Sequence record: PZ534515.1
From: a phage
Length of the DNA stretch: 64,000 nt
Direction: 5' to 3' (one strand)
This document shows, in pieces, positions 29,021-53,143 of the stretch. The notes below the pieces were generated by a model. That model had not been told where the DNA came from. It worked only from the letters and a program-made list of their open reading frames with translations, and did no database searches. Position 1 is the stretch's first letter; every line of letters starts with the position of its first letter. A program made the translations under genes and the position numbers.

Positions 29021-29107
29021 TTTTGGTTTTTAAAACAAGTAAATTACTAATCAACGGGAGGGATGACCTCCCCACTAAGTAAAGTCCTTAAACTAGGAGA
29101 TTAGAAA

Positions 29108-29380
29108 ATGTATACTACTAACAACGGTCGTACTCTAAATGTAACTTTGCGCCACTATGTGAACGGTGTAATGCACTTCGAGGATTTACAAGCCGAACAA
29201 CATATCTTAGATTGGCAACTTGCAGGACTCCAAAAAACTGCTACAGGATACGGGAAAAAGATTCCAACCAGTTGGAAAGTATACTACGAAGGCCGTTTGC
29301 GCAGAATTTATCAAGATGTGCATAGCAATAGCGCAACAAGTTACATCATGGTAAAAGGCAAAAAGCTGCATTTAGTATAA
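29108..29380 (+). CDS. hypothetical protein (array gene 7)
   Basis: Type B leader. Confidence 0.5.
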   Translation: MYTTNNGRTLNVTLRHYVNGVMHFEDLQAEQHILDWQLAGLQKTATGYGKKIPTSWKVYYEGRLRRIYQDVHSNSATSYIMVKGKKLHLV

Positions 29381-29880: not shown

Positions 29881-29909
29881 TTGACACTGGTTTTCAGATA
29901 GATTAAATT
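29881..29909 (+). promoter_or_regulatory. putative sigma70-like promoter (TTGACA-17 bp-TAAATT)
   Basis: Hexamers read from sequence inside the array. Confidence 0.35.
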
Positions 29910-29972
29910 ACACATCAACGGGGCTGGAATGACCTTCCCCACTAAATAAAGTCCTAAACTGGAGATTCAAAA

Positions 29973-30176
29973 ATGGCTATTATTAACGGTTTAACCATTG
30001 AAACTACACACATCAAAGATATTAAAGTTGGTGATGTAGTCCTTTCCCACGGCGTAGAGAAAACTGTTACTGCAAAGGATATCAAAGAGGATTCTTTCAT
30101 GGGTAGGACTCTCTTCGGTGATTCTTATTGCTTAGGTTATCTTGCAGTTTTAAAAGTTGTCAAAAATAACCGATAA
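29973..30176 (+). CDS. hypothetical protein (array gene 9)
   Basis: Type B leader. Confidence 0.5.
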   Translation: MAIINGLTIETTHIKDIKVGDVVLSHGVEKTVTAKDIKEDSFMGRTLFGDSYCLGYLAVLKVVKNNR

Positions 30177-31111: not shown

Positions 31112-31199
31112 ACAAGCCTGATAAAAGTCTGTAAATTGTCAATCAACGGGAGGGATGACCTCCCAACTAAACAAAGTCCTTAAACTAGGAGATTCAAAA

Positions 31200-31541
31200 A
31201 TGGCTTATGTAACCGTAATTACCAATAAAGAAGATTCATCTTGGTCAACTCAAGTAAGTGACAAGATGTCACCTATGCAGTGCCTAAAATACTTTGAGCA
31301 ATGGAACAAAGGTGAGGAAACAAGCCCCTTTCAAGTAATGCAGGTTATTCATACAGACAACGAAGGGAATAAAACTGTTTTGAATAGTGAGTACTATGCA
31401 ACCAGATTCGAAACGAGAAGTAAAGCAATGAGGCTCTTACGTGAATCCGGTTACTCTCATATTGCCGCGCTAATCTGGGATGACCTCCTAAAAAGTCAGC
31501 GTATCAGCTATGTAAAACCTGAAAAAATATTTATCAGCTAA
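31200..31541 (+). CDS. hypothetical protein (array gene 12)
   Basis: Type B leader places the ATG at 31200. The track start at 31155 translates the conserved leader. Confidence 0.5.
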   Translation: MAYVTVITNKEDSSWSTQVSDKMSPMQCLKYFEQWNKGEETSPFQVMQVIHTDNEGNKTVLNSEYYATRFETRSKAMRLLRESGYSHIAALIWDDLLKSQRISYVKPEKIFIS

Positions 31542-31760
31542 TCAATAACTTACAAAAAACTTTTAAAAAAGTGTTGACAATGCCCCTTGACATTGGTAAC
31601 TTTGTTCGAGGGGGTTTATCTAAAAGGATTCACTTAAAAGATTCTTTATAGATAAACTTAAAAAATTGCTTGCAATCAGCTATCAAAACAAGTAAATTAC
31701 TAATCAACGGGAGGGATAACCTCCCCACTAAGTAAAGTCCTTAAACTAGGAGATTCAAAA

Positions 31761-32291
31761 ATGAACAAATTTCAAGCTATCAACTACATTCGCTCAATCC
31801 ATGTAATGTCAAAGCCTGTTAAAGACACCTATGAATTTCGTTGCAATGGTGTACACTTTGCAACCATCACTAAATCAGAAAACGGGACTTATTACATTCA
31901 TCGTCGTAATGTTGCAACCGTTGTAGTCTCTCACTTTATGCAAGCCGTTGCGGAACTCCTCCCGATGTTTTTAGGGCTTTACTTGGATGAGTGTAAGAAT
32001 ATCCGTAACCACGTTAAAAGCCTTTTAAACGGTTATAAAATGGCTTATGAACGTTCTATTCATAATTTGAACAAGTTCTATAAAGCCCCTGAAAACACCG
32101 TATCAATGGCATACGCTGTAAAGGGTGAGGCGGTGAGTCTCTTCGAAGTGGAAGAAATCGAGCTTTATGACCATCGCCCCAATGGTTACGCTAAAACTCT
32201 CGGTGAAGGTTTAACGTTTAACATCAAGAACTTAGAAAAAACTTTAAGAGATATTGAAAAAGATATTGACGAGACAATCAAAAATCTGTAA
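31761..32291 (+). CDS. hypothetical protein (array gene 13)
   Basis: Type B leader; preceded by a 220-bp spacer containing two TTGACA boxes. Confidence 0.5.
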   Translation: MNKFQAINYIRSIHVMSKPVKDTYEFRCNGVHFATITKSENGTYYIHRRNVATVVVSHFMQAVAELLPMFLGLYLDECKNIRNHVKSLLNGYKMAYERSIHNLNKFYKAPENTVSMAYAVKGEAVSLFEVEEIELYDHRPNGYAKTLGEGLTFNIKNLEKTLRDIEKDIDETIKNL

Positions 32292-32356
32292 ATTATCAAT
32301 CAACGGGAGGGATAACCTCCCCACTAAGTAAAGTCCTTAAACTAGGAGTTATCAAG

Positions 32357-32620
32357 ATGGAAAACGTAGAATTAACCACACTTTTACAAATTGCAACCGA
32401 TAAAGAAAACGTAGCATTAATTCACCGCATCGAAAGTGATTTGTTCAATGGTGAAATCATCAAAGAGTCTTACGAAGTTGTCGGATTCAAAGATGGTAAA
32501 ACGTTTGGATTCTTTGACCTCGACAAAGGCAACGCTGTTACAAATTACGATGTTTTATCTTGTGAGATTCTTACAAAATACAACGAAAAAAGGCTTGCAA
32601 CATACACCAACATGCAGTAA
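32357..32620 (+). CDS. hypothetical protein (array gene 14)
   Basis: Variant type B leader (aggagttatcaagATG). Confidence 0.45.
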   Translation: MENVELTTLLQIATDKENVALIHRIESDLFNGEIIKESYEVVGFKDGKTFGFFDLDKGNAVTNYDVLSCEILTKYNEKRLATYTNMQ

Positions 32621-32686
32621 ATTACTAATCAACGGGAGGTAATGACCTCCCCACTAAACAAAGTCCTTAAACTAGGAGATTCAAAA

Positions 32687-32935
32687 ATGGCAACTATCCG
32701 CGCAACTGTTAACGAATTTGGCTTCTACTCTCTGGATGTTAAATTTGACCTTGTAGGCACTGACAACGCCTTTGAAATGGTGAAAGGTCTTATCAGTCAG
32801 ACCATCAAAGACTATAATCCTTCTGATGAGTTCTGGAAAGAAACAAAACAGGAAGTTCTTAAAGATGGTTACACTTTTCACTATTGGGGAGAAAAAATCG
32901 TCTCCCTGTACTACAACAAACAAGATTATAACTAA
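32687..32935 (+). CDS. hypothetical protein (array gene 15)
   Basis: Type B leader places the ATG at 32687. The track start at 32642 translates the leader. Confidence 0.5.
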   Translation: MATIRATVNEFGFYSLDVKFDLVGTDNAFEMVKGLISQTIKDYNPSDEFWKETKQEVLKDGYTFHYWGEKIVSLYYNKQDYN

Positions 32936-32945
32936 TCGACGCAGC

Positions 32946-33000
32946 GGGGCTAAATAGCCCCAGATACCTTTACAGCCCCTTTCCAATAGGGGCTTTTTTA
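32946..33000 (+). terminator. tandem hairpins / rho-independent terminator closing the array
   Basis: ggggctaaatagcccc, then agcccctttccaataggggct followed by TTTTTT. Confidence 0.6.
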
Positions 33001-34530
33001 CGTCTTATGAAATGCCTATACAATCCTTTCCCTTTCCTTTCCAGAATCTTACTAGACCTTAAAAAGCAATAACTCTATAGCTTACTCTATAGCCTTTTAT
33101 CAAATCAACTTAAATATAAGCCCATAACCCGAAAGGGAAGGGCAACCATTTAAACGCTCTATAAAGCCCTATAACAGCCTTATCAACCCAACTTAAGGGA
33201 TTGCATTACCTCACCCTTAAAAGCCCTTTATAAAGCTTTCTAGAGCCTTAAAAGAATCTTATAAGGTTGTAAGCTTTATCATCTCGTTAGTATCTTATGA
33301 ACTACTAGAAAGGGCTTGTTAGTGTTTTAAAAGTATGTTATAGGGGCTATAAAGTTGCTTAAAAGTAGCTTAAAAGTTACGTAAATGCTAGCCCCCTTAA
33401 CATTTTCTTAACAATTTCTTAACAAACCCTACATAGTTATGCTTTTAAGGCACTTGTTAGCAACTTGTTAGCCCCTTGTTAAATCTCTGTTAAAACCATG
33501 TAAAAGCCTTGTAAGAGTCTTTGACATAGCCTTTAAAGCCCCTGTAAAGCCCTATAAAGAGCTTTCTACATAGTTGGGGTGTAATTACTAGGAAGAGACT
33601 TAAAAGAGCTTACAAGGAGCTATAGAGAGCTTTTAAGAGGGCTATTTAGAGAATCACTAAGAAAGAGAGGGAACGATAAGAAAAGAGATAGTGACCATGT
33701 TAATAGCTTGTTAAAAAGATTAAACACTTGTTAGGAACTTGTTAATTATCTTAACAAAATAACTCTTTAAAATTAACTTGTTAGCTCTTGTTAGTCATCT
33801 GTTAAGCATCTGTAAAGACTATTCAGCACTTGTTAGAAAACTGTTAAGCCCTTGTTAGTTCTGTTAAGAAACTGTTAAGACCTCTGAAGAGATGTTAAGA
33901 AGATGTAGCAACTGTTAAGAGATTGTTAATGATATTTTAAAATTCTGCAAAGGGGATGTTACAGGGATGTTAAGGGCTACCAAGCAGATATACATCTTCT
34001 ACAGATATTTTTGAGTTCCTTCAAAGACCCTAAAAAATGACTTGATAGTCCTATTTTATAAAAATTTTAAAATTCTGAATAATTACCTAGACAGTCTTTT
34101 AAAAATACAGGCATAAACAGGCTTATAAGATACCTTGTTAGTACCGTGTTAGACCTTGTGAGATAAGGTCTGTAAAGATATTCCTGTTAAGTTTGTTAAA
34201 ACAGTCTATATAGAGGCTTAGTAATACCTAGTGAACACCTATAGAGGGTAACATAGCTGACATAGAGATTAAGAGGTGTATAGGGGCTTCTAAGAGTGTG
34301 TAGATGTATGGTTAAGGTGATTGTATAGGTTGTTAAGAAGGCTTGTTAGAAGAGTGTTTAGAAGGGCTATACAGAGGGGCTATTAAGACCACTAGATAGT
34401 TACTAAGATACTATATAGTACTATATAACTATATATAGAGAGTAAGCTTAAGGAGGTTGTTAAGAAGGATAGATATTTTATTCACATATGATGGTGACCC
34501 AGAGGTTGGGACAACCGATAAAATTTTATA
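33000..34530. repeat. ORF-free zone with dense short degenerate repeats (YTGTTAR family and cttaaaag/tataaag family)
   Basis: No ORF of 60 aa or more on either strand across about 1.5 kb. More than 30 copies of cttgttag / ctgttaag / atgttaag; between 33700 and 33960 they recur about every 11 bp. Bounded by convergent terminators. Confidence 0.65.
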
Positions 34531-34565
34531 AAAATTAAAAAGCCCCCAATTAAGGAGGCTCTTAA
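34530..34565 (-). terminator. rho-independent terminator (minus strand)
   Basis: Reverse complement reads gagcctcc-ttaatt-gggggct hairpin followed by TTTTTAATTTTT, downstream of the last minus-strand gene. Confidence 0.5.
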
Positions 34566-34571
34566 GATATT

Positions 34572-35120
34572 TTAAATCAATGTTTCCAGAACTGTCTTCA
34601 GTGATGACTTGGTTGTCTGATAAAAATGAGTAAATCCGTTGTTGTTATCAAATATCTGCATCATGATATCATCTCCCTTGATTGGGTACACTCGGATATC
34701 ATAATGGAACCCATTAAAGACAGCAGAACCATTACAGAATGCACTAAAGTCATCCACTGAGATGTACTCTTCATGACCTGTGATTTTTATACAGATACCT
34801 TTACTCGGTCTCTTAGGGTTGATATCTTCCATCACAGACATACTCTGTCCACCAAGAGATACCATAGTGACCACTTTACGGTTCTTCTGTCTAAAGTACA
34901 TTTTAACTTTCTGTAAAGTGTCTTCATAGAACGGATAAGACTTCTCTACAAAGATTCCTTCTAATGGCTCTTTACCGTTTACAATACCTCTGGTATGACG
35001 TACTGAGAAGATAAGTTGCTCTAGTATGTCAAGGCTTTCTTCGGAGAGTGCTTCCCGAATATCATTCCAGTCAAGGACTAGGTAGTTGCCTTCAACTTCT
35101 TTTAAGTTATCTTTTTTCAT
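34572..35120 (-). CDS. hypothetical protein
   Basis: In-frame ATG (MKKDNLK...); the track start at 35165 is a TTG. Confidence 0.45.
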   Translation of the reverse strand: MKKDNLKEVEGNYLVLDWNDIREALSEESLDILEQLIFSVRHTRGIVNGKEPLEGIFVEKSYPFYEDTLQKVKMYFRQKNRKVVTMVSLGGQSMSVMEDINPKRPSKGICIKITGHEEYISVDDFSAFCNGSAVFNGFHYDIRVYPIKGDDIMMQIFDNNNGFTHFYQTTKSSLKTVLETLI

Positions 35121-42580: not shown

Positions 42581-42952
42581 ATGAAAAACAGAACAAACAA
42601 AGGCCAGTTTAAAAAAGGCCAGTCTGGAAACCCATCTGGAAGACCAAAAGGCTCTCGTAACAAAAGCTCACTCGTAAAAGCTCAACTGACCATTGATAAT
42701 TCTGCTGAGTTCGCTGCAAAGCTGTTTGAGGCGATTGTTACAAGGGACGCTGCTAAGCTTGCAGAGTTCGGGTTAAACACAGATGACGTAACCATCAAGA
42801 GCATGATTGAGGTCGGTAAAACTATCTTTACTCACTCAGCAGGTGAGATGAAAGCACTTGCAGCAGACACTAAGAAGACTCCTGATAATGGTGGTCAACA
42901 ACAGACAGATAACAAACCAACGTTCTCTGCTGTAGCGACTCTCAAAAAATAA
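42581..42952 (+). CDS. hypothetical protein with basic N-terminal GQSGNPSGRPKGS motif
   Basis: ATG start. The motif may correspond to a phage DUF family; I cannot name it reliably. Confidence 0.45.
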   Translation: MKNRTNKGQFKKGQSGNPSGRPKGSRNKSSLVKAQLTIDNSAEFAAKLFEAIVTRDAAKLAEFGLNTDDVTIKSMIEVGKTIFTHSAGEMKALAADTKKTPDNGGQQQTDNKPTFSAVATLKK

Positions 42953-43033: not shown

Positions 43034-44449
43034 ATGAGCGAGTTATTTAAACATGCGCACCTTCATGCAGGTCGAACTGAAAATGGTGCTGTAAACCATA
43101 CTTCATCAATGTCTGCTCTGGTAGACTTCTACAAAGCCGCTGGCTCAAGCCGTAGCAATGTAGAAATCTTACCAGACCTGTTCTACAAAGCTTTGCGTGA
43201 GGATGTTGATGTTGCAGTTCGTATTTTACTGCATATGCGAGATGTGCGAGAAGGTATGGGTGAGCGTAAAGCTTTCCGAACTGTTTTACTTCAAGCAATT
43301 GAAGATAAAGTTTTAGAACCTACACAGGTTCTCCGCATTATGGATAAGATTGCAGAACTTGGTCGTTTTGATGACTTCAAAATCTTTGTAGGTACTCGTT
43401 TTGAGACAGACGCCTTCAAACATTTAGAAGCAGCATTACTAGACCCTGCAACAGCAGGTTTAGCAGCTAAGTGGTTACCACGAGTAAAACCACGCCACAA
43501 ACAGTTTGTAAAACGTTTCTGTAAGTTTGCAAACTTAAGCGAGAAAGAGTACCGCACACTGTTATCTGCACTGTCTGATACGGTTGAGCAAAAAATCTCT
43601 GCTAATGAGTTTGGTAAGATTGACTACAGCAAGATTCCTTCACTCGCTGCTGCACGTTACCAAAAGCTCTTTAACCGTAAAGATGGGGAACGTTACAAAG
43701 CTTACATCGAGTCACTATCAAAGGGTGAGGCTAAGATTAACGCTGGTGCTGTTTACCCATATGATGTGATTAAATCTATCAAGCATGGTAATGCAGATGT
43801 TGCTAATGAGCAGTGGAAAGCACTACCAAACTGGATGGCAGAAGGTGAGAACATCTTGTGTATGACTGATGTTTCAAGCTCAATGTCTTGGGTGAATCTT
43901 GGTTCAATCACTGCCCTTGATATTGGTGTATCACTTGCCTTGTATGTAGCAGAACGCAATACAGGCTGCTTTAAGAATGAGTTAATGGTTTATTCAACAA
44001 ACCCTCACTTCATTGAACTGAGTGGCGATTTACAAAACCGTCATCGTCAGGTGATGCGTCATGTTGAATATGGTTCAACTAACTTACAAGCAGCTTTTGA
44101 CCGTATTCTTGAAATAGGTAAGAGAAACAACTTGACTCAGAAAGATATGCCAAGTAAGCTTATCATCTTCTCCGATATGGAGTTCAATCAGGTTGATGGA
44201 GCTAACGGTCGTACAAACTTTGAAGCAATTCAGAGTAAGTGCAAAAAAGCTGGATACGAAATGCCACAACTGGTATTCTGGTACTTAGCAAACCGTAATG
44301 GTACTTGCGAAGTATCTGTTAAGGATAATGGTGTAGCAATGGTATCAGGGTTCTCTCCAGCCACTTTAAAAGCTCTGCTTGGTGGTGAGAAGTTTGACCC
44401 AATCAGCGTAATGCTCAAAGCAGTAATGATTGACCGTTACATCTGGTAA
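43034..44449 (+). CDS. vWA-domain protein (MIDAS motif), possibly TROVE/Ro60-like
   Basis: ILCMTDVSSSMS fits the vWA MIDAS D-x-S-x-S motif. Alpha-helical N-terminal half. Located immediately upstream of the tRNA bank. Confidence 0.45.
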   Translation: MSELFKHAHLHAGRTENGAVNHTSSMSALVDFYKAAGSSRSNVEILPDLFYKALREDVDVAVRILLHMRDVREGMGERKAFRTVLLQAIEDKVLEPTQVLRIMDKIAELGRFDDFKIFVGTRFETDAFKHLEAALLDPATAGLAAKWLPRVKPRHKQFVKRFCKFANLSEKEYRTLLSALSDTVEQKISANEFGKIDYSKIPSLAAARYQKLFNRKDGERYKAYIESLSKGEAKINAGAVYPYDVIKSIKHGNADVANEQWKALPNWMAEGENILCMTDVSSSMSWVNLGSITALDIGVSLALYVAERNTGCFKNELMVYSTNPHFIELSGDLQNRHRQVMRHVEYGSTNLQAAFDRILEIGKRNNLTQKDMPSKLIIFSDMEFNQVDGANGRTNFEAIQSKCKKAGYEMPQLVFWYLANRNGTCEVSVKDNGVAMVSGFSPATLKALLGGEKFDPISVMLKAVMIDRYIW

Positions 44450-49836: not shown

Positions 49837-50037
49837 ATGAGCGAGACCGTTTATAAAGAACTTTATGAAGCTAATAAGAAGCTAGAATTTATGCAGAATA
49901 CTATCATGGCAATTGCAGACAGATTGTCTGTAGCAACAGGTATTGATATCAAAGAAGCATCTATGGATGCACTTCTTGATGCTGTTGATGCAAAGTTCGA
50001 AGTTAAGAAAGAAGAGACTGCTACAGACTCTGAATAA
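49837..50037 (+). CDS. hypothetical small protein upstream of terminase (possible small terminase subunit or partner)
   Basis: 66 aa, acidic, predicted helical. Function inferred from position only. Confidence 0.3.
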   Translation: MSETVYKELYEANKKLEFMQNTIMAIADRLSVATGIDIKEASMDALLDAVDAKFEVKKEETATDSE

Positions 50038-50058
50038 TTCTATTTGCGGAGGTGCTTA

Positions 50059-51660
50059 ATGGACTTAAATGCTGTTAAGCAGAAGCGAGTGGAAGATGTT
50101 AGGAAAGTCCTAGCTGGAGAGTTGGGGCTTTCTGATGAAGTAAAAGAAATTATCAAATCATTCGGTAAAGACCCCTCTAAATTCCTTCCAACTCAAATTC
50201 TGACTTTATTAAGATACACACCAGACCAAGTTAGACTTATCTTCAAATTGATGACTGATAAGAACTATGTAGCCCCTCAGCCGGGTTCTCAAGAGGTCTT
50301 TTTAAATACTAATGCTGATTTGGTTCTCTATGGTGGTGCTGCTGGTGCTGGTAAAACCGCTGCATTGTTAATGGACTCTTTAAGATTTATTGAAGACCCT
50401 AACTATAACGCTGTATATTTCCGTCGAAATACAACACAGTTACAAGGTGGTTTATGGCCTGCTGCAAAGAAACTATTTGGTAAGTTTGGTGGGGTTCCTC
50501 ACGAGCAGAAGATGACTATCACGTTCCCTTCTGGGGCAACTATCAAGTTCACCTACCTAGAACTTGAAAAGCACGCTGAAGGTCATCAGGGTATTGAATA
50601 CTCGGCTATTTACTTTGACGAAGGTACACACTTCTCTGCTTCACAGATTTCATACCTACAGACTCGTCTACGTTCTGGGGCTGAAGGCGATTCATACATG
50701 AAGATTTCCATGAACCCAGACAGAGACCATTTTATTTATGATTGGGTAGAACCATTCTTAGATGAAGAAGGATATCCAGACCCTGAGAAGTGTGGTCGTA
50801 TTCGTTGGTATGTTATGAATGATGGTGTGATGGTCTCTGATTGGGAGAGAGACAAGATTCTTGAGATGTTCCCTCTTGAGATTCCTCAGACATACACCTT
50901 CATCTCTGGTACGATTGATGATAACCCAATTCTTGACTTCTTAGAACCTAAATACCGTGGTAAGTTGGAAAACAACACACCTGTAAACGTTGCAAGACTT
51001 CGTTTCGGTAACTGGAAGGCTCGTGCAGAAGGTTCAAACTATTGGCAAAGACAATGGTGTGAGATTGTTGATTCACTCCCAGAAGATGTGTTTGATGTCA
51101 GAGCATGGGACTTAGCAGCGACTTTACCATCTGAAATTAACCCTAACCCAGACTGGACAGCGGGTGTTAAGATGGGTAAATCTAAAAAAGACGGTTGCTA
51201 TTATATCATTGATGTAGTAAGATTTAGAGATAGACCCTCTGGAGTCGAAACACAAATTAATTTGACTGCTGAAAGTGACGGTAAGCGAACTGGTATTTTT
51301 ATCCCTCAAGACCCAGGCGCTGCTGGTAAATCCTATGCAACATCCCTCATCAGGAAACTTGCCGAGAAAGGTTATCGCGCAAGAGCTAAACCAACAAATA
51401 AAGATAAAGTTACCCGCTTTGCGGGATTTTCTGCTGCTTCTGAAGCTGGACTTGTAAAAGTCTTGAGAGGCAGTTGGAACGAAGCTTACTTTCAAGAACT
51501 TGAAGGTTTTTGTGGTGACGGTAAAACTAAAGATGACCAAGTGGATGCTACCAGTGATGCTTTCAACAGTCTTAACGAAGTTAAATTATTCAAGCCACCA
51601 TCAATGGGTGCTCACACAGACTTAGTGAGAGGAAACCCATATGAGGGGCTTAGACGTTGA
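50059..51660 (+). CDS. terminase large subunit
   Basis: Walker A VLYGGAAGAGKTAAL, Walker B-like IYFDEGTHF, and a C-terminal nuclease region with conserved acidic residues. GGAGG upstream of the ATG. Confidence 0.75.
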   Translation: MDLNAVKQKRVEDVRKVLAGELGLSDEVKEIIKSFGKDPSKFLPTQILTLLRYTPDQVRLIFKLMTDKNYVAPQPGSQEVFLNTNADLVLYGGAAGAGKTAALLMDSLRFIEDPNYNAVYFRRNTTQLQGGLWPAAKKLFGKFGGVPHEQKMTITFPSGATIKFTYLELEKHAEGHQGIEYSAIYFDEGTHFSASQISYLQTRLRSGAEGDSYMKISMNPDRDHFIYDWVEPFLDEEGYPDPEKCGRIRWYVMNDGVMVSDWERDKILEMFPLEIPQTYTFISGTIDDNPILDFLEPKYRGKLENNTPVNVARLRFGNWKARAEGSNYWQRQWCEIVDSLPEDVFDVRAWDLAATLPSEINPNPDWTAGVKMGKSKKDGCYYIIDVVRFRDRPSGVETQINLTAESDGKRTGIFIPQDPGAAGKSYATSLIRKLAEKGYRARAKPTNKDKVTRFAGFSAASEAGLVKVLRGSWNEAYFQELEGFCGDGKTKDDQVDATSDAFNSLNEVKLFKPPSMGAHTDLVRGNPYEGLRR

Positions 51661-51676
51661 TAGCTAGGTGAGAAGA

Positions 51677-53143
51677 ATGGCAGAAATTACAGAAACACAA
51701 GAAAGCTTACCACCATTTAGAATGGGTGAAGTAGGTTCTTTGGGTCTGAAGGTTAAGAATGGTAGAATCTATGAAGAACCTCGTCAGGCACTAAGGTTCC
51801 CTGAAAGTATTAAAACTTTCCAATTAATGATGCGTGACCCTGCTGTAGCAGCATCTGTGAATATTATTAAGATGTTTGTCAGAAAAGTCAACTGGAGATT
51901 CGTACCTCCAAAGGGAAAAGAGCAAGACCCTAAAATGCTTGAAAGAGCAGACTTCTTTAATTCTTTAATGGATGACATGGAGCATGATTGGGCAGATTTT
52001 ATTAACTCTGTAATGTCATTCTGCACTTATGGGTTCTGTGTTAACGAAAAGGTTTATAAGAAACGTCAGGGTAAGAAAGGAAAGTATCAGTCAAAATTTG
52101 ATGATGGTCTAATTGGGTGGGCTAAATTACCAATCAGAAACCAGTCAACACTTGATAAGTGGTATTTTGACGAAGACTTTAGAAAAGTTACTGGTGTCAG
52201 ACAAAATCTAAGAAATGTTTCACATATTGCTGGAGCAATTAATCTTGGAGAAAGACCACTAACAAGAAAACTCCCACGAGCTAAATTCATGCTGTTTAAG
52301 TATGATGATGAGTATGGTAACCCAGAAGGTCGTTCACCATTACTTAATGCTTATGTACCGTGGAAGTATAAAGTACAGATTGAAGAGTATGAAGCTGTTG
52401 GTGTTTCAAGAGACTTAGTAGGTATGCCAAAGATTGGTTTACCACCAGATTATCTGGATGAAAATGCAGAGCCTGAAAAGAAAGCTTTCGTACAATACTG
52501 CAAAACTGTTGTTAATGATATGATTGCTAACGACAGAGCAGGTTTAATCTGGCCTAGATATATCGACCCAGATACTAAAGAGGATATTTTTGAGTTCTCA
52601 TTAGTTTCTAGACAGGGTGCTAAAGCATATGATACAGGTTCTATTATTGACAGATATTCTAAGCAGATTATGATGGCATTTATGTCAGATGTTCTTGCTA
52701 TGGGTCAGTCAAAATACGGTTCATTCTCTCTTGCAGATTCTAAGACAAGTCTATTAGCAATGTCGGTAGATATTCTGCTGAAGCAAATTAAGAACGTAAT
52801 TAACCGCGACTTAGTTGCACAGACTTATGCCCTTAATATGTGGGATGATGAAGAACATGTACAAATCACATATGATGATATCGAAACTCCAGACCTTGAA
52901 GCAATTGGTTCTTATATCCAGAAGACTGTTGCAGTAGGTGCTTTGGAAGTTGACAAAGAGCTATCTAACAAGCTTAGAGAGCATATTGGTCTTCCTCCTG
53001 CTGATGAGTCTCAGCCAGTATCTGAAAAGCTTTCTCCGAATAGCCAAAGCCGTTCAGGAGATGGTTATAAGACCGCTGGAGAAGGTACTGCAAAGACACC
53101 TTCAGCAAAAGACCCAAGCACAGCAAATAAGGCAAATAAATAA
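51677..53143 (+). CDS. portal protein
   Basis: About 489 aa, immediately downstream of the large terminase. Assigned by size and position. Confidence 0.5.
   Translation: MAEITETQESLPPFRMGEVGSLGLKVKNGRIYEEPRQALRFPESIKTFQLMMRDPAVAASVNIIKMFVRKVNWRFVPPKGKEQDPKMLERADFFNSLMDDMEHDWADFINSVMSFCTYGFCVNEKVYKKRQGKKGKYQSKFDDGLIGWAKLPIRNQSTLDKWYFDEDFRKVTGVRQNLRNVSHIAGAINLGERPLTRKLPRAKFMLFKYDDEYGNPEGRSPLLNAYVPWKYKVQIEEYEAVGVSRDLVGMPKIGLPPDYLDENAEPEKKAFVQYCKTVVNDMIANDRAGLIWPRYIDPDTKEDIFEFSLVSRQGAKAYDTGSIIDRYSKQIMMAFMSDVLAMGQSKYGSFSLADSKTSLLAMSVDILLKQIKNVINRDLVAQTYALNMWDDEEHVQITYDDIETPDLEAIGSYIQKTVAVGALEVDKELSNKLREHIGLPPADESQPVSEKLSPNSQSRSGDGYKTAGEGTAKTPSAKDPSTANKANK

Follow-up and report, generated by a model that had tools for sequence, protein, structure and literature searches.

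A conserved array of predicted ArcA-type boxes at the genome ends of a Felix O1-like phage

Terminal repeats are an established feature of phages related to Felix O1. Short terminal repeats were inferred for Felix O1 itself (PMC3185647), and in UAB_Phi87 a direct terminal repeat (DTR) of 608 bp was found through the Bal31 sensitivity of two SpeI fragments together with run-off sequencing; the clade assignment of the large terminase as DTR-type is reported in the same paper (PMC4837284). In addition, PhageTerm gave a 581-bp terminal repeat in Pr103Blw and also yielded DTRs for the E9 and I14.1 set, and Felix O1 and FO1a have been cited as resembling UAB_Phi87 and Pr103Blw in their terminal repeats. 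The accessible reports on these repeats give their length and existence, and describe no internal array, conserved boundary sequences or bound protein. Here we analyze the corresponding region of sequence record PZ534515.1, of which a stretch of 64,000 nucleotides (the window, whose positions are used throughout) was available. The assignment of a terminal repeat in this group is already known; the new feature is a conserved, end-anchored array of boxes within it that are predicted to be of the ArcA type.

Its database matches place the window in Felixounavirus, the genus of Felix O1-like myoviruses. A megablast search with positions 32900-34650 matched 257 phage records, of which 195 cover at least 80% of the query. 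Nearly all of these 195 belong to Felixounavirus and related Ounavirinae, and the closest match is Escherichia phage SME50 (94.9%). The region of interest, referred to here as the zone, is a gene-free interval (32936-34571) between a plus strand gene that stops at 32935 and a minus strand gene that stops at 34572. Comparison with the records of relatives indicates that the zone is the concatemer junction, in which the physical ends of the genome lie, and that it consists of three segments:

33001-33390, no strand: right-end spacer, unique non-coding DNA just inside the right end of the virion DNA
33391-33981, no strand: DTR of 591 bp, present as a single copy at each virion end and once per concatemer unit
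33982-34537, no strand: left-end spacer, unique non-coding DNA just inside the left end of the virion DNA

The zone is placed at the junction because the end duplications of relatives, the starts of their records and the boundaries of UAB_Phi87 map to 33391-33981. When both ends of a record are compared, E9 (580/580) and ZX4221 (591/591) carry exact end duplications that map to this segment. The duplication in GE_vB_7A (about 582 bp, 99.5% over 583 aligned columns) maps to 33397-33979, and that in MET-P1-301 (544 bp) to 33412-33967, just inside the DTR limits. About a dozen records from independent laboratories begin at 33391; those that open exactly there include ECP2307, I14.1, SPJ41, CRP22, NBSal004 and Mooglevirus HP1, the last of which annotates a 570-bp repeat_region, while EcSzw_1 is oriented the other way and opens at 33980. 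The boundaries homologous to 33391 and 33981 lie 614 bp apart in the UAB_Phi87 record, within a few bases of the 608 bp reported, and the 591 bp of the DTR fall in the published range of 580-608 bp. Thus, both hallmarks of a short exact DTR are found in this group: an identical segment at both ends, in the relatives, and fixed, non-permuted ends, in the UAB_Phi87 experiment. The left boundary reads ATGCTA/GCCCCCTTAACA and the right boundary ATGTTAAGGGCTACC/AAGCAGATATACA, where the slash marks the cut and the exact ends are a/GCCCCCTTAACA ... GGGCTACC/AAGCAGATATACA. A packaging site, one of the functions proposed for the zone in a first-pass annotation, was essentially the right reading, since the zone holds the DTR and both cleavage boundaries of a DTR-packaging phage; what that annotation missed was the genome terminus and the confinement of the repeats to a 591-bp sub-segment.

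Most of the approximately 260 deposited relatives were opened at arbitrary points and appear without a terminal repeat. Z31, BPS17W1, dune and ekra have record ends that fall inside the zone at non-homologous points (33602 in Z31, near 34305 in BPS17W1); these were treated as assembly breakpoints and disregarded. Also, the 'DTR' that the authors of KMM2 reported, and used to call their genome complete, is a 64-bp assembly overlap that is uninformative on the ends.

The most conserved block of the zone, AAGCAGATATACA (33982-33994), lies directly outside the right DTR boundary. In an alignment of ten phages from three genera, with which phiEa104 (Erwinia, Kolesnikvirus) was compared as a fourth genus, this block is invariant across the three genera save for one base in Sf13, and it is present at the homologous place in phiEa104 (positions 2604-2616 of locus L022). 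It is a candidate for a terminase recognition or cleavage determinant. As a separate observation, ATGTTATAGGGGCTA (33335-33349, left of the DTR) and TAGCCCCCTTAACAT (33389-33403, across the left cut) are the arms of an inverted repeat, separated by 39 nt, and ATGTTAAGGGCTA at the right cut (33967-33979) is a direct copy of the ATGTTATAGGGGCTA arm. The two cut sites in this way have in common a motif of about 15 nt, inverted between them, and the cuts are offset by 2-4 nt; the outer copy of the motif, ATGTTATAGGGGCTA, is not conserved in other genera. The apparent inverted symmetry of the cut sites (GCTAGCCCCCTTAACAT versus the reverse complement GGTAGCCCTTAACAT) was retained as an observation only, given the offset between the cuts and its weakness in phiEa104.

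The zone is densely populated by a short motif. The first-pass annotation had put the number of degenerate YTGTTAR copies at more than 30, which is a fair description: positions 33000-34570 contain 27 exact YTGTTAR (24 forward, 3 reverse), 33 YTGTWAR and 36 TGTTA. By comparison, 1000 dinucleotide shuffles contain 2.0 +/- 1.4 copies of YTGTTAR with a maximum of 8, and the density of the motif is 17.2 per kb in the zone versus 1.06 per kb in the rest of the window. Successive TGTTA copies are exactly 11 bp apart in 12 of 29 cases, and most other spacings are 9-10, 20 or 31-33 bp. TGTTA-N6-TGTTA occurs 14 times in the 64 kb, each time within the zone, and the base autocorrelation at lag 11 is 0.46 in 33391-33981 versus 0.28 in flanking coding DNA. 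Long-range phase coherence is borderline (Rayleigh power 8.7 versus a 99th-percentile null of 9.0), which indicates that the TGTTA copies form short phased runs and not one phased lattice. Within the DTR, 21 cores are forward and 4 reverse, in runs of 2-4, and they are arranged as follows:

33396-33426, minus strand: a run of three consensus TGTTAA repeats, 11 bp apart, that begins 7 nt from the left terminus
33455, 33466, 33477 and 33488, plus strand: four TGTTA repeats, 11 bp apart
33499 and 33510, plus strand: weaker TGTAA repeats that continue the preceding run, which spans 33455-33520
33521-33697, no strand: central part of the DTR without TGTTA cores, occupied by units of a second repeat family
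33698-33972, plus strand: main array, with 17 forward TGTTA cores and one reverse core (33752), mostly 11 bp apart and also 20 and 31-33 bp; its last two cores (33957 and 33968) end 9 nt from the right terminus

Comparison across genera shows purifying selection on a core of 5-6 bp and not on the spacers. The non-coding zone is 78-80% identical across genera, at least as much as the zone and its flanking genes aligned together (approximately 73%). Within the DTR, the core columns are 94.4% identical across genera versus 72.8% for the other columns, and per position the constraint covers only TGTTA and the next base, which is A in 17 and G in 7 of the 25 cores. The TGTTA copies in the left-end spacer are not preferentially kept across genera (72.5% versus 74.4%), and this spacer is the most conserved part of the zone within the genus (95%). 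The cores at 33466, 33477 and 33488 are invariant across the three genera, and the one at 33455 is TATTA in the other two genera and deleted in L27. The footprint (94% versus 73%), restricted to five or six bases, points to a sequence-specific binder that would contact about 5-6 bp per helical turn, head to tail.

In phiEa104 only 116 nt can be aligned, yet there is a 1.43-kb ORF-free zone between convergent genes that contains 18 TGTTAA, and recognizable boundary sequences predict a repeat of 439 bp. The first two boxes start at positions 7 and 18 of the DTR in each of the six lineages tested, phiEa104 included. Four genera retain the TGTTA core, its spacing of 11 bp and a terminal box at offset 7; conservation of the repeat spacing in related phages was among the checks suggested with the first annotation.

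Of particular interest is the likeness of these repeats to the binding sites of phosphorylated ArcA (ArcA-P). ArcA is a redox-responsive regulator of the OmpR/PhoB family in Enterobacterales hosts, and its sites in E. coli are direct repeats of a 10-bp element, ATGTTAAAAA, with the core TGTTA; the elements are spaced 11 bp centre to centre, 22 bp also being seen, with 2-5 per site (PMC3798270, PMC4173790). We scored the window with a position weight matrix built from 115 of the 128 E. coli boxes bound in chromatin immunoprecipitation (ChIP) that are listed in Table S3 of Park et al., using as cut-offs the weakest real site of that study (9.1 bits) and its genome-scan cut-off (15 bits). The 591-bp DTR contains 18 matches at 9.1 bits or more, 13 at 12 or more and 8 at 15 or more, versus 1.02, 0.25 and 0.04, respectively, in shuffles. 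Only three matches of at least 15 bits are found in the other 62 kb, that is, 0.05 per kb versus 13.5 per kb in the DTR. The best boxes, TTGTTAAGAAAATGTTAA (22.7 bits) and TTGTTAAGAAATTGTTAA (22.5 bits), are the two at the left end (33397 and 33408, reverse strand), and both score above every training site (the E. coli maximum is 21.5). The terminal boxes face outward at both DTR ends.

When the cores are kept and their positions randomized, the number of matches of at least 12 bits drops from 13 to 1.5, which indicates that the spacing itself matters. Matches at this level are confined to the DTR in six lineages; the counts inside and outside the repeat are 13 and 4 (in 4.9 kb) for the window, 15 and 1 for HP1, and 14 and 0 for phiEa104. 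In contrast, two-element patterns for PhoP, PhoB, CpxR, OmpR and TorR have no matches in the window and a PmrA-type pattern has one. The sequence has the following properties of an ArcA-P site: two or more direct TGTTA elements, an 11-bp spacing, and scores equal to or higher than those of ChIP-bound sites.

From this architecture we infer that the DTR cores are binding sites for a head-to-tail binder of the OmpR/PhoB winged-helix type, with one monomer per helical turn, and ArcA-P would be the best candidate. Taken jointly, an explanation that combines the genome ends and DTR, selection on the core and a predicted ArcA-P binder seems to us somewhat probable. Whether ArcA-P in fact occupies the cores is a narrower question, for which we put the chances slightly below even. 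More tentative again is the view that the DTR is an ArcA-P super-site of about 25 elements, through which a host regulator would coat every end of the phage chromosome. The first-pass annotation had listed an array of regulator binding sites among its options; this may be literally right, as the repeats fit the architecture of ArcA-P sites.

A second repeat family, also pointed out in the first annotation, is real. CTTAAAAG occurs at 4.5 per kb in the zone versus 0.35 per kb elsewhere in the window, and together with TATAAAGCCC it is enriched 13-fold; the repeat families D1, D4 and D13 span 33145-33650. The right-end spacer is composed of degenerate units of 10-11 bp (CTTAAAAG, TATAAAGCCC, CTCTATAG) with a lag-11 autocorrelation of 0.41, and is 75% identical across genera without a motif-specific footprint. 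A weak phased run, AAGTTG / AAGTAG / AAGTTA / ATGCTA (33353-33390), ends at the left cut site. Within the DTR, units of the second family (TTTAAAGCCCC, TGTAAAGCCC, TATAAAGAGC, CTTAAAAGAGC, CTTACAAGGAGC and others, from D1 and D13) occupy 33521-33697 at a spacing of 10-12 bp. In phiEa104 this family is replaced and TGTTAAG is unchanged: instead of the CTTAAAAG/TATAAAG family, the outer flank of phiEa104 (L022, 1700-2060) contains 12 TTCTAA (CTTCTAAR) at a spacing of about 11 bp.

Several points weigh against ArcA-P, or against the placement of the ends. The termini were placed from relatives that are 89-95% identical, not from reads of the phage in the window. Outside the core, the terminal boxes fit the ArcA preferences very well, but 7 of the 25 DTR cores (28%) are followed by G, versus 3-4% in ArcA boxes, and many DTR spacers are G+C-rich whereas ArcA spacers are A/T-rich; many elements are for these reasons sub-optimal outside the core. 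A scan of IMG/VR for four TGTTA cores at 11 bp returned more than 120 loci, of which just 13 are from Ounavirinae. The others come from more than 100 unrelated uncultured viral contigs, and most are perfect 11-bp tandem repeats on contigs of 21-66% G+C. Since the hosts of these phages cannot all have ArcA, 11-bp TGTTA iterons can arise without it. A chance coincidence between an iteron core and the core of one host OmpR-family regulator has a small probability. Felix O1-type phages also grow well aerobically, when ArcA-P is low. Genetic data lend ambiguous support: arcB is among the genes (with himA, himD, crp and others) whose disruption made Salmonella resistant to Felix O1 in an RB-TnSeq screen, but the arcB phenotype is shared with a T5-like phage, the authors of the screen invoke RpoS, and arcA is unmentioned in their paper. 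The searchable literature makes no mention of ArcA together with Felix O1, Felixounavirus or Bas63.

Some of the IMG/VR loci have a different character. L115, L088, L135, L072, L129, L032, L116 and L125-L127 have 33-38% G+C and at least four TGTTA cores at 11 bp, with variable spacers and several matches to the ArcA matrix of at least 15 bits; two of these variable-spacer loci, L115 and L135, have no relative among cultured phages.

The departures from ArcA preferences, namely the G after the core and the G+C-rich spacers, and the presence of 11-bp TGTTA tandem arrays in many unrelated viral contigs also favour another reading, in which a phage-encoded protein binds the TGTTAR repeats and the likeness to ArcA is coincidental. 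The array would then be a pac-type signal for the initiation and termination of packaging, and the binder could be an unrecognized small terminase, the product of the 66-aa ORF just before the large terminase gene, the Cro/C1-type regulator or a novel fold. Small terminases typically recognize arrays of short phased repeats (SPP1 pacL/pacR, the R sites of lambda cosB), and as none has been identified in the Felix O1-like group, one is missing. We consider this alternative a serious competitor, though less probable than ArcA-P. The core is unchanged across four genera, Erwinia phages included, where the neighbouring repeat family has changed, and phage-encoded specificities usually drift with their proteins. 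The 5-6 bp constrained per unit are few for an iteron-type binder. In addition, no OmpR-type winged-helix domain was among the matches listed in a Pfam scan of 104 ORFs, which covered the window and, for the rest of the genome, the sequence of Bas63, although such a scan would miss a novel phage DNA-binding fold, which is a further point against ArcA-P. The sole recognized regulator is an HTH_3 protein, and proteins of this kind normally bind inverted, not direct, repeats. A search for a small terminase among the neighbours of the large terminase gene and the 104 ORFs gave only DUFs, the HTH_3 regulator and a DUF5681 protein among the matches listed. The large terminase gene (50044-51660; phrog_979, E 1e-233) and the portal gene (51668-53143) are 16 kb from the zone. 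A conserved 66-aa ORF (49837-50037; phrog_4397, without a match in Pfam) ends 7 nt upstream of the large terminase gene and is a candidate small terminase by position only.

The first-pass annotation also raised the possibility that the zone is a replication origin. An origin, either as the function of the zone or in addition to the ends, would comprise iterons for an initiator beside an AT-rich unwinding element. Such a reading can draw on the iteron-like direct repeats one helical turn apart, on a conserved AT-rich block (34050-34085) at a distance of about 70 bp from the array, on the absence of transcription from the zone, and on a local maximum of cumulative GC skew near 35 kb. The AT-rich block alone, however, is not diagnostic of an origin, and the skew, which had been suggested as a check, turns at about 35 kb where gene orientation switches. 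No initiator, helicase loader or other replication gene is adjacent, the polymerase and primase/helicase genes being about 37 kb away on the Bas63 map. No DnaA-type consensus was seen in the zone, nor any match to the IHF consensus WATCAANNNNTTR, which occurs 7 times in the window versus 5.9 expected. In six lineages, moreover, the limits of the array coincide exactly with those of the terminal repeat; this is accounted for by a role in packaging or at the ends, but not by an origin. The origin proposal is thus left without specific support, and we regard it as very improbable. Least credible is the view that no sequence-specific protein is involved and that the repeats stem from slippage or recombination in terminal non-coding DNA or act via intrinsic curvature: the 10-12-bp periodicity of the whole 1.6 kb, including parts without a conserved core, and the indels of entire 11-bp units between relatives are compatible with it, but it does not account for the sharp cross-genus footprint on five or six bases, and curvature alone does not predict that TGTTA is conserved base by base or that the terminal boxes keep a fixed offset.

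If ArcA-P binds the DTR cores head to tail, several roles may be envisaged, all of them most speculative. Cooperative coating of the DTR could mark both ends of the chromosome. The coat could position the terminase cuts, as the terminal boxes are 7 nt (left) and 9 nt (right) from the respective cut and both face outward. After injection, it could also shield the ends or bring them into synapsis. Finally, the array could titrate ArcA-P, given about 25 sites in each DTR and genome copies in the hundreds; such a decoy in replicating DNA would drain ArcA-P and de-repress respiration and the TCA cycle in an anaerobic gut host.

No ORF of 60 aa or more is present in the zone, as annotated earlier, and the sole ORF of at least 30 aa within 32936-34571 is one of 35 aa (33620-33727). 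In annotated relatives, the zone is flanked by a plus strand arm and a minus strand arm of small hypothetical genes, and the genes that adjoin it on either side encode small proteins of unknown function. Transcription of both arms runs towards the ends and is stopped by terminators short of them. The predicted end of minus strand transcription at about 34530-34565 was borne out. Of the tandem plus strand terminators proposed for about 32950-33000, the downstream one is an intrinsic terminator and the upstream one is a hairpin without a T-run; this terminator region (32947-33000) is kept in the ten aligned phages. The features outside the DTR are:

32947-32963, plus strand: hairpin GGGGCTAAATAGCCCC without a T-run, at the end of rightward transcription
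32974-32994, plus strand: stem of an intrinsic terminator, followed by a T-run, downstream of the hairpin
34050-34085, left-end spacer: conserved AT-rich block
34132-34162, left-end spacer: three repeats ACCKTGTKAG (family D8)
34410-34440, left-end spacer: TA-rich palindromic block
34563-34538, minus strand: intrinsic terminator that ends leftward transcription, with a 10-bp stem, 5 G-C pairs and a T-run

The three repeats of family D8, ACCTTGTTAG, ACCGTGTTAG and ACCTTGTGAG, are 10-mers with a spacing of 10-11 bp, located about 150 bp inward of the left end. They lie outside the DTR and are near-invariant across three genera, and thus constitute a separate conserved triple site. A structured RNA was considered for the zone and rejected: an Rfam scan of 32500-35000 with E values up to 1 gave just two sub-threshold chance matches (mir-708 and Phe leader), and sliding RNAalifold on both strands of the ten-phage alignment gave no convincing conserved structure. 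A scan for sigma-70 promoters found 14 sites versus 9.9 expected, none in the zone being better than 9 of 12.

Two observations concern other parts of the window. At least six small plus strand genes are preceded by a cassette of about 70 bp that consists of AATTACTAATCAAC, a stem-loop GGGAGG..CCTCCC, ACTAAGTAAAGTCCTTAAACT, the Shine-Dalgarno sequence AGGAG and the ATG. Copies are found at:

29032-29114, plus strand: cassette copy
29904-29975, plus strand: cassette copy
31142-31205, plus strand: cassette copy
31704-31760, plus strand: cassette copy
32288-32355, plus strand: cassette copy
32616-32689, plus strand: cassette copy

The cassette resembles a 5' UTR or a regulatory hairpin common to a single class of genes. 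Intergenic direct repeats of 57 and 39 bp are described in the Felix O1 paper (PMC3185647), and their printed sequences are unlike the cassette. The second observation is that a 123-aa DUF5681 protein (42581-42949) is encoded directly upstream of a 471-aa protein (43034-44449) with the PHROGs annotation RNA-binding. The PhageMaP paper, whose text has no scores for the intergenic zone, describes a Ro60-like protein (gp130) in Bas63, a Felixounavirus, directly upstream of tRNA genes, and gp130 may be the counterpart of the 471-aa protein.

A conserved and precisely placed predicted protein-binding array, with its terminal box 7 nt from the left cut in four genera, provides a concrete handle on end recognition and end duplication in DTR-packaging myoviruses, in a group for which we know of no small terminase. 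The exact ends and the 591-bp repeat are needed for correct genome records, and also for rebooting or synthesizing therapeutic and diagnostic phages of the Felix O1 type. If the binder is ArcA, this would be, to our knowledge, the first case of a virulent phage with dense sites for a host two-component regulator on its ends. Infection would then be linked to oxygen availability in the gut, with possible titration of a transcription factor by phage DNA. Whether the coat acts at the ends or as a decoy, the life cycle of a virulent phage would be coupled directly to the host circuit that senses oxygen.

Among known systems, the DTRs of UAB_Phi87 (608 bp) and Pr103Blw (581 bp) are the same element at homologous coordinates, in phages whose large terminase is of the same group; reports on them cover length and existence, and the internal array is described here. 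The layout also resembles the T7 junction (SRR, a 160-bp terminal repeat and SRL), which likewise is non-coding and contains arrays of short direct repeats about one helical turn apart. In T7, ACCTAAAG occurs three times inside the 160-bp repeat, about 12 units of the CCTAAAG type lie mostly 13 bp apart at 175-340, and a similar array precedes the right repeat. As a side observation, the T7 SRL/SRR units (CCTAAAG, CTTAAAG and CATAAAG; L144 1-340 and L145 621-726) resemble those of the second family (CTTAAAAG, CTATAAAG, CTGTAAAG). Unlike T7, however, the phage in the window is a myovirus. Its junction has no sequence homology to that of T7 and its repeat is nearly four times longer; the main array is inside the repeat and not beside it, and its motif is TGTTAR at 11 bp; and there are no early promoters at the end, both arms being transcribed towards the ends. 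A gp18-like small terminase was not recognized among the neighbours of the large terminase or in the ORF scan. The likeness is thus one of layout only, and by this analogy the junction works like those of the T7 family without being a member of it.

The E. coli ArcA-P sites share with the array the TGTTA core, the direct orientation, the 11-bp spacing (occasionally 22) and runs of 2-4, with matrix scores that are equal or higher here. They differ in extent and setting: 2-5 elements over a promoter in E. coli, and about 25 elements in 591 bp with no recognizable promoter in the DTR. Host proteins are known to act on mobile elements in comparable ways, with IHF at lambda cosB and ArcA at the psi Xer site of pSC101, and ArcA reportedly controls the transfer of F-like plasmids through the tra promoters, according to a study of plasmid R1. 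We know of no phage terminus that uses ArcA. Lambda cosB uses IHF, whereas the zone is without an IHF consensus. If ArcA does bind, the DTR would be another instance of a mobile element that recruits a host DNA-binding protein to a processing complex, much as lambda does with IHF at cosB.

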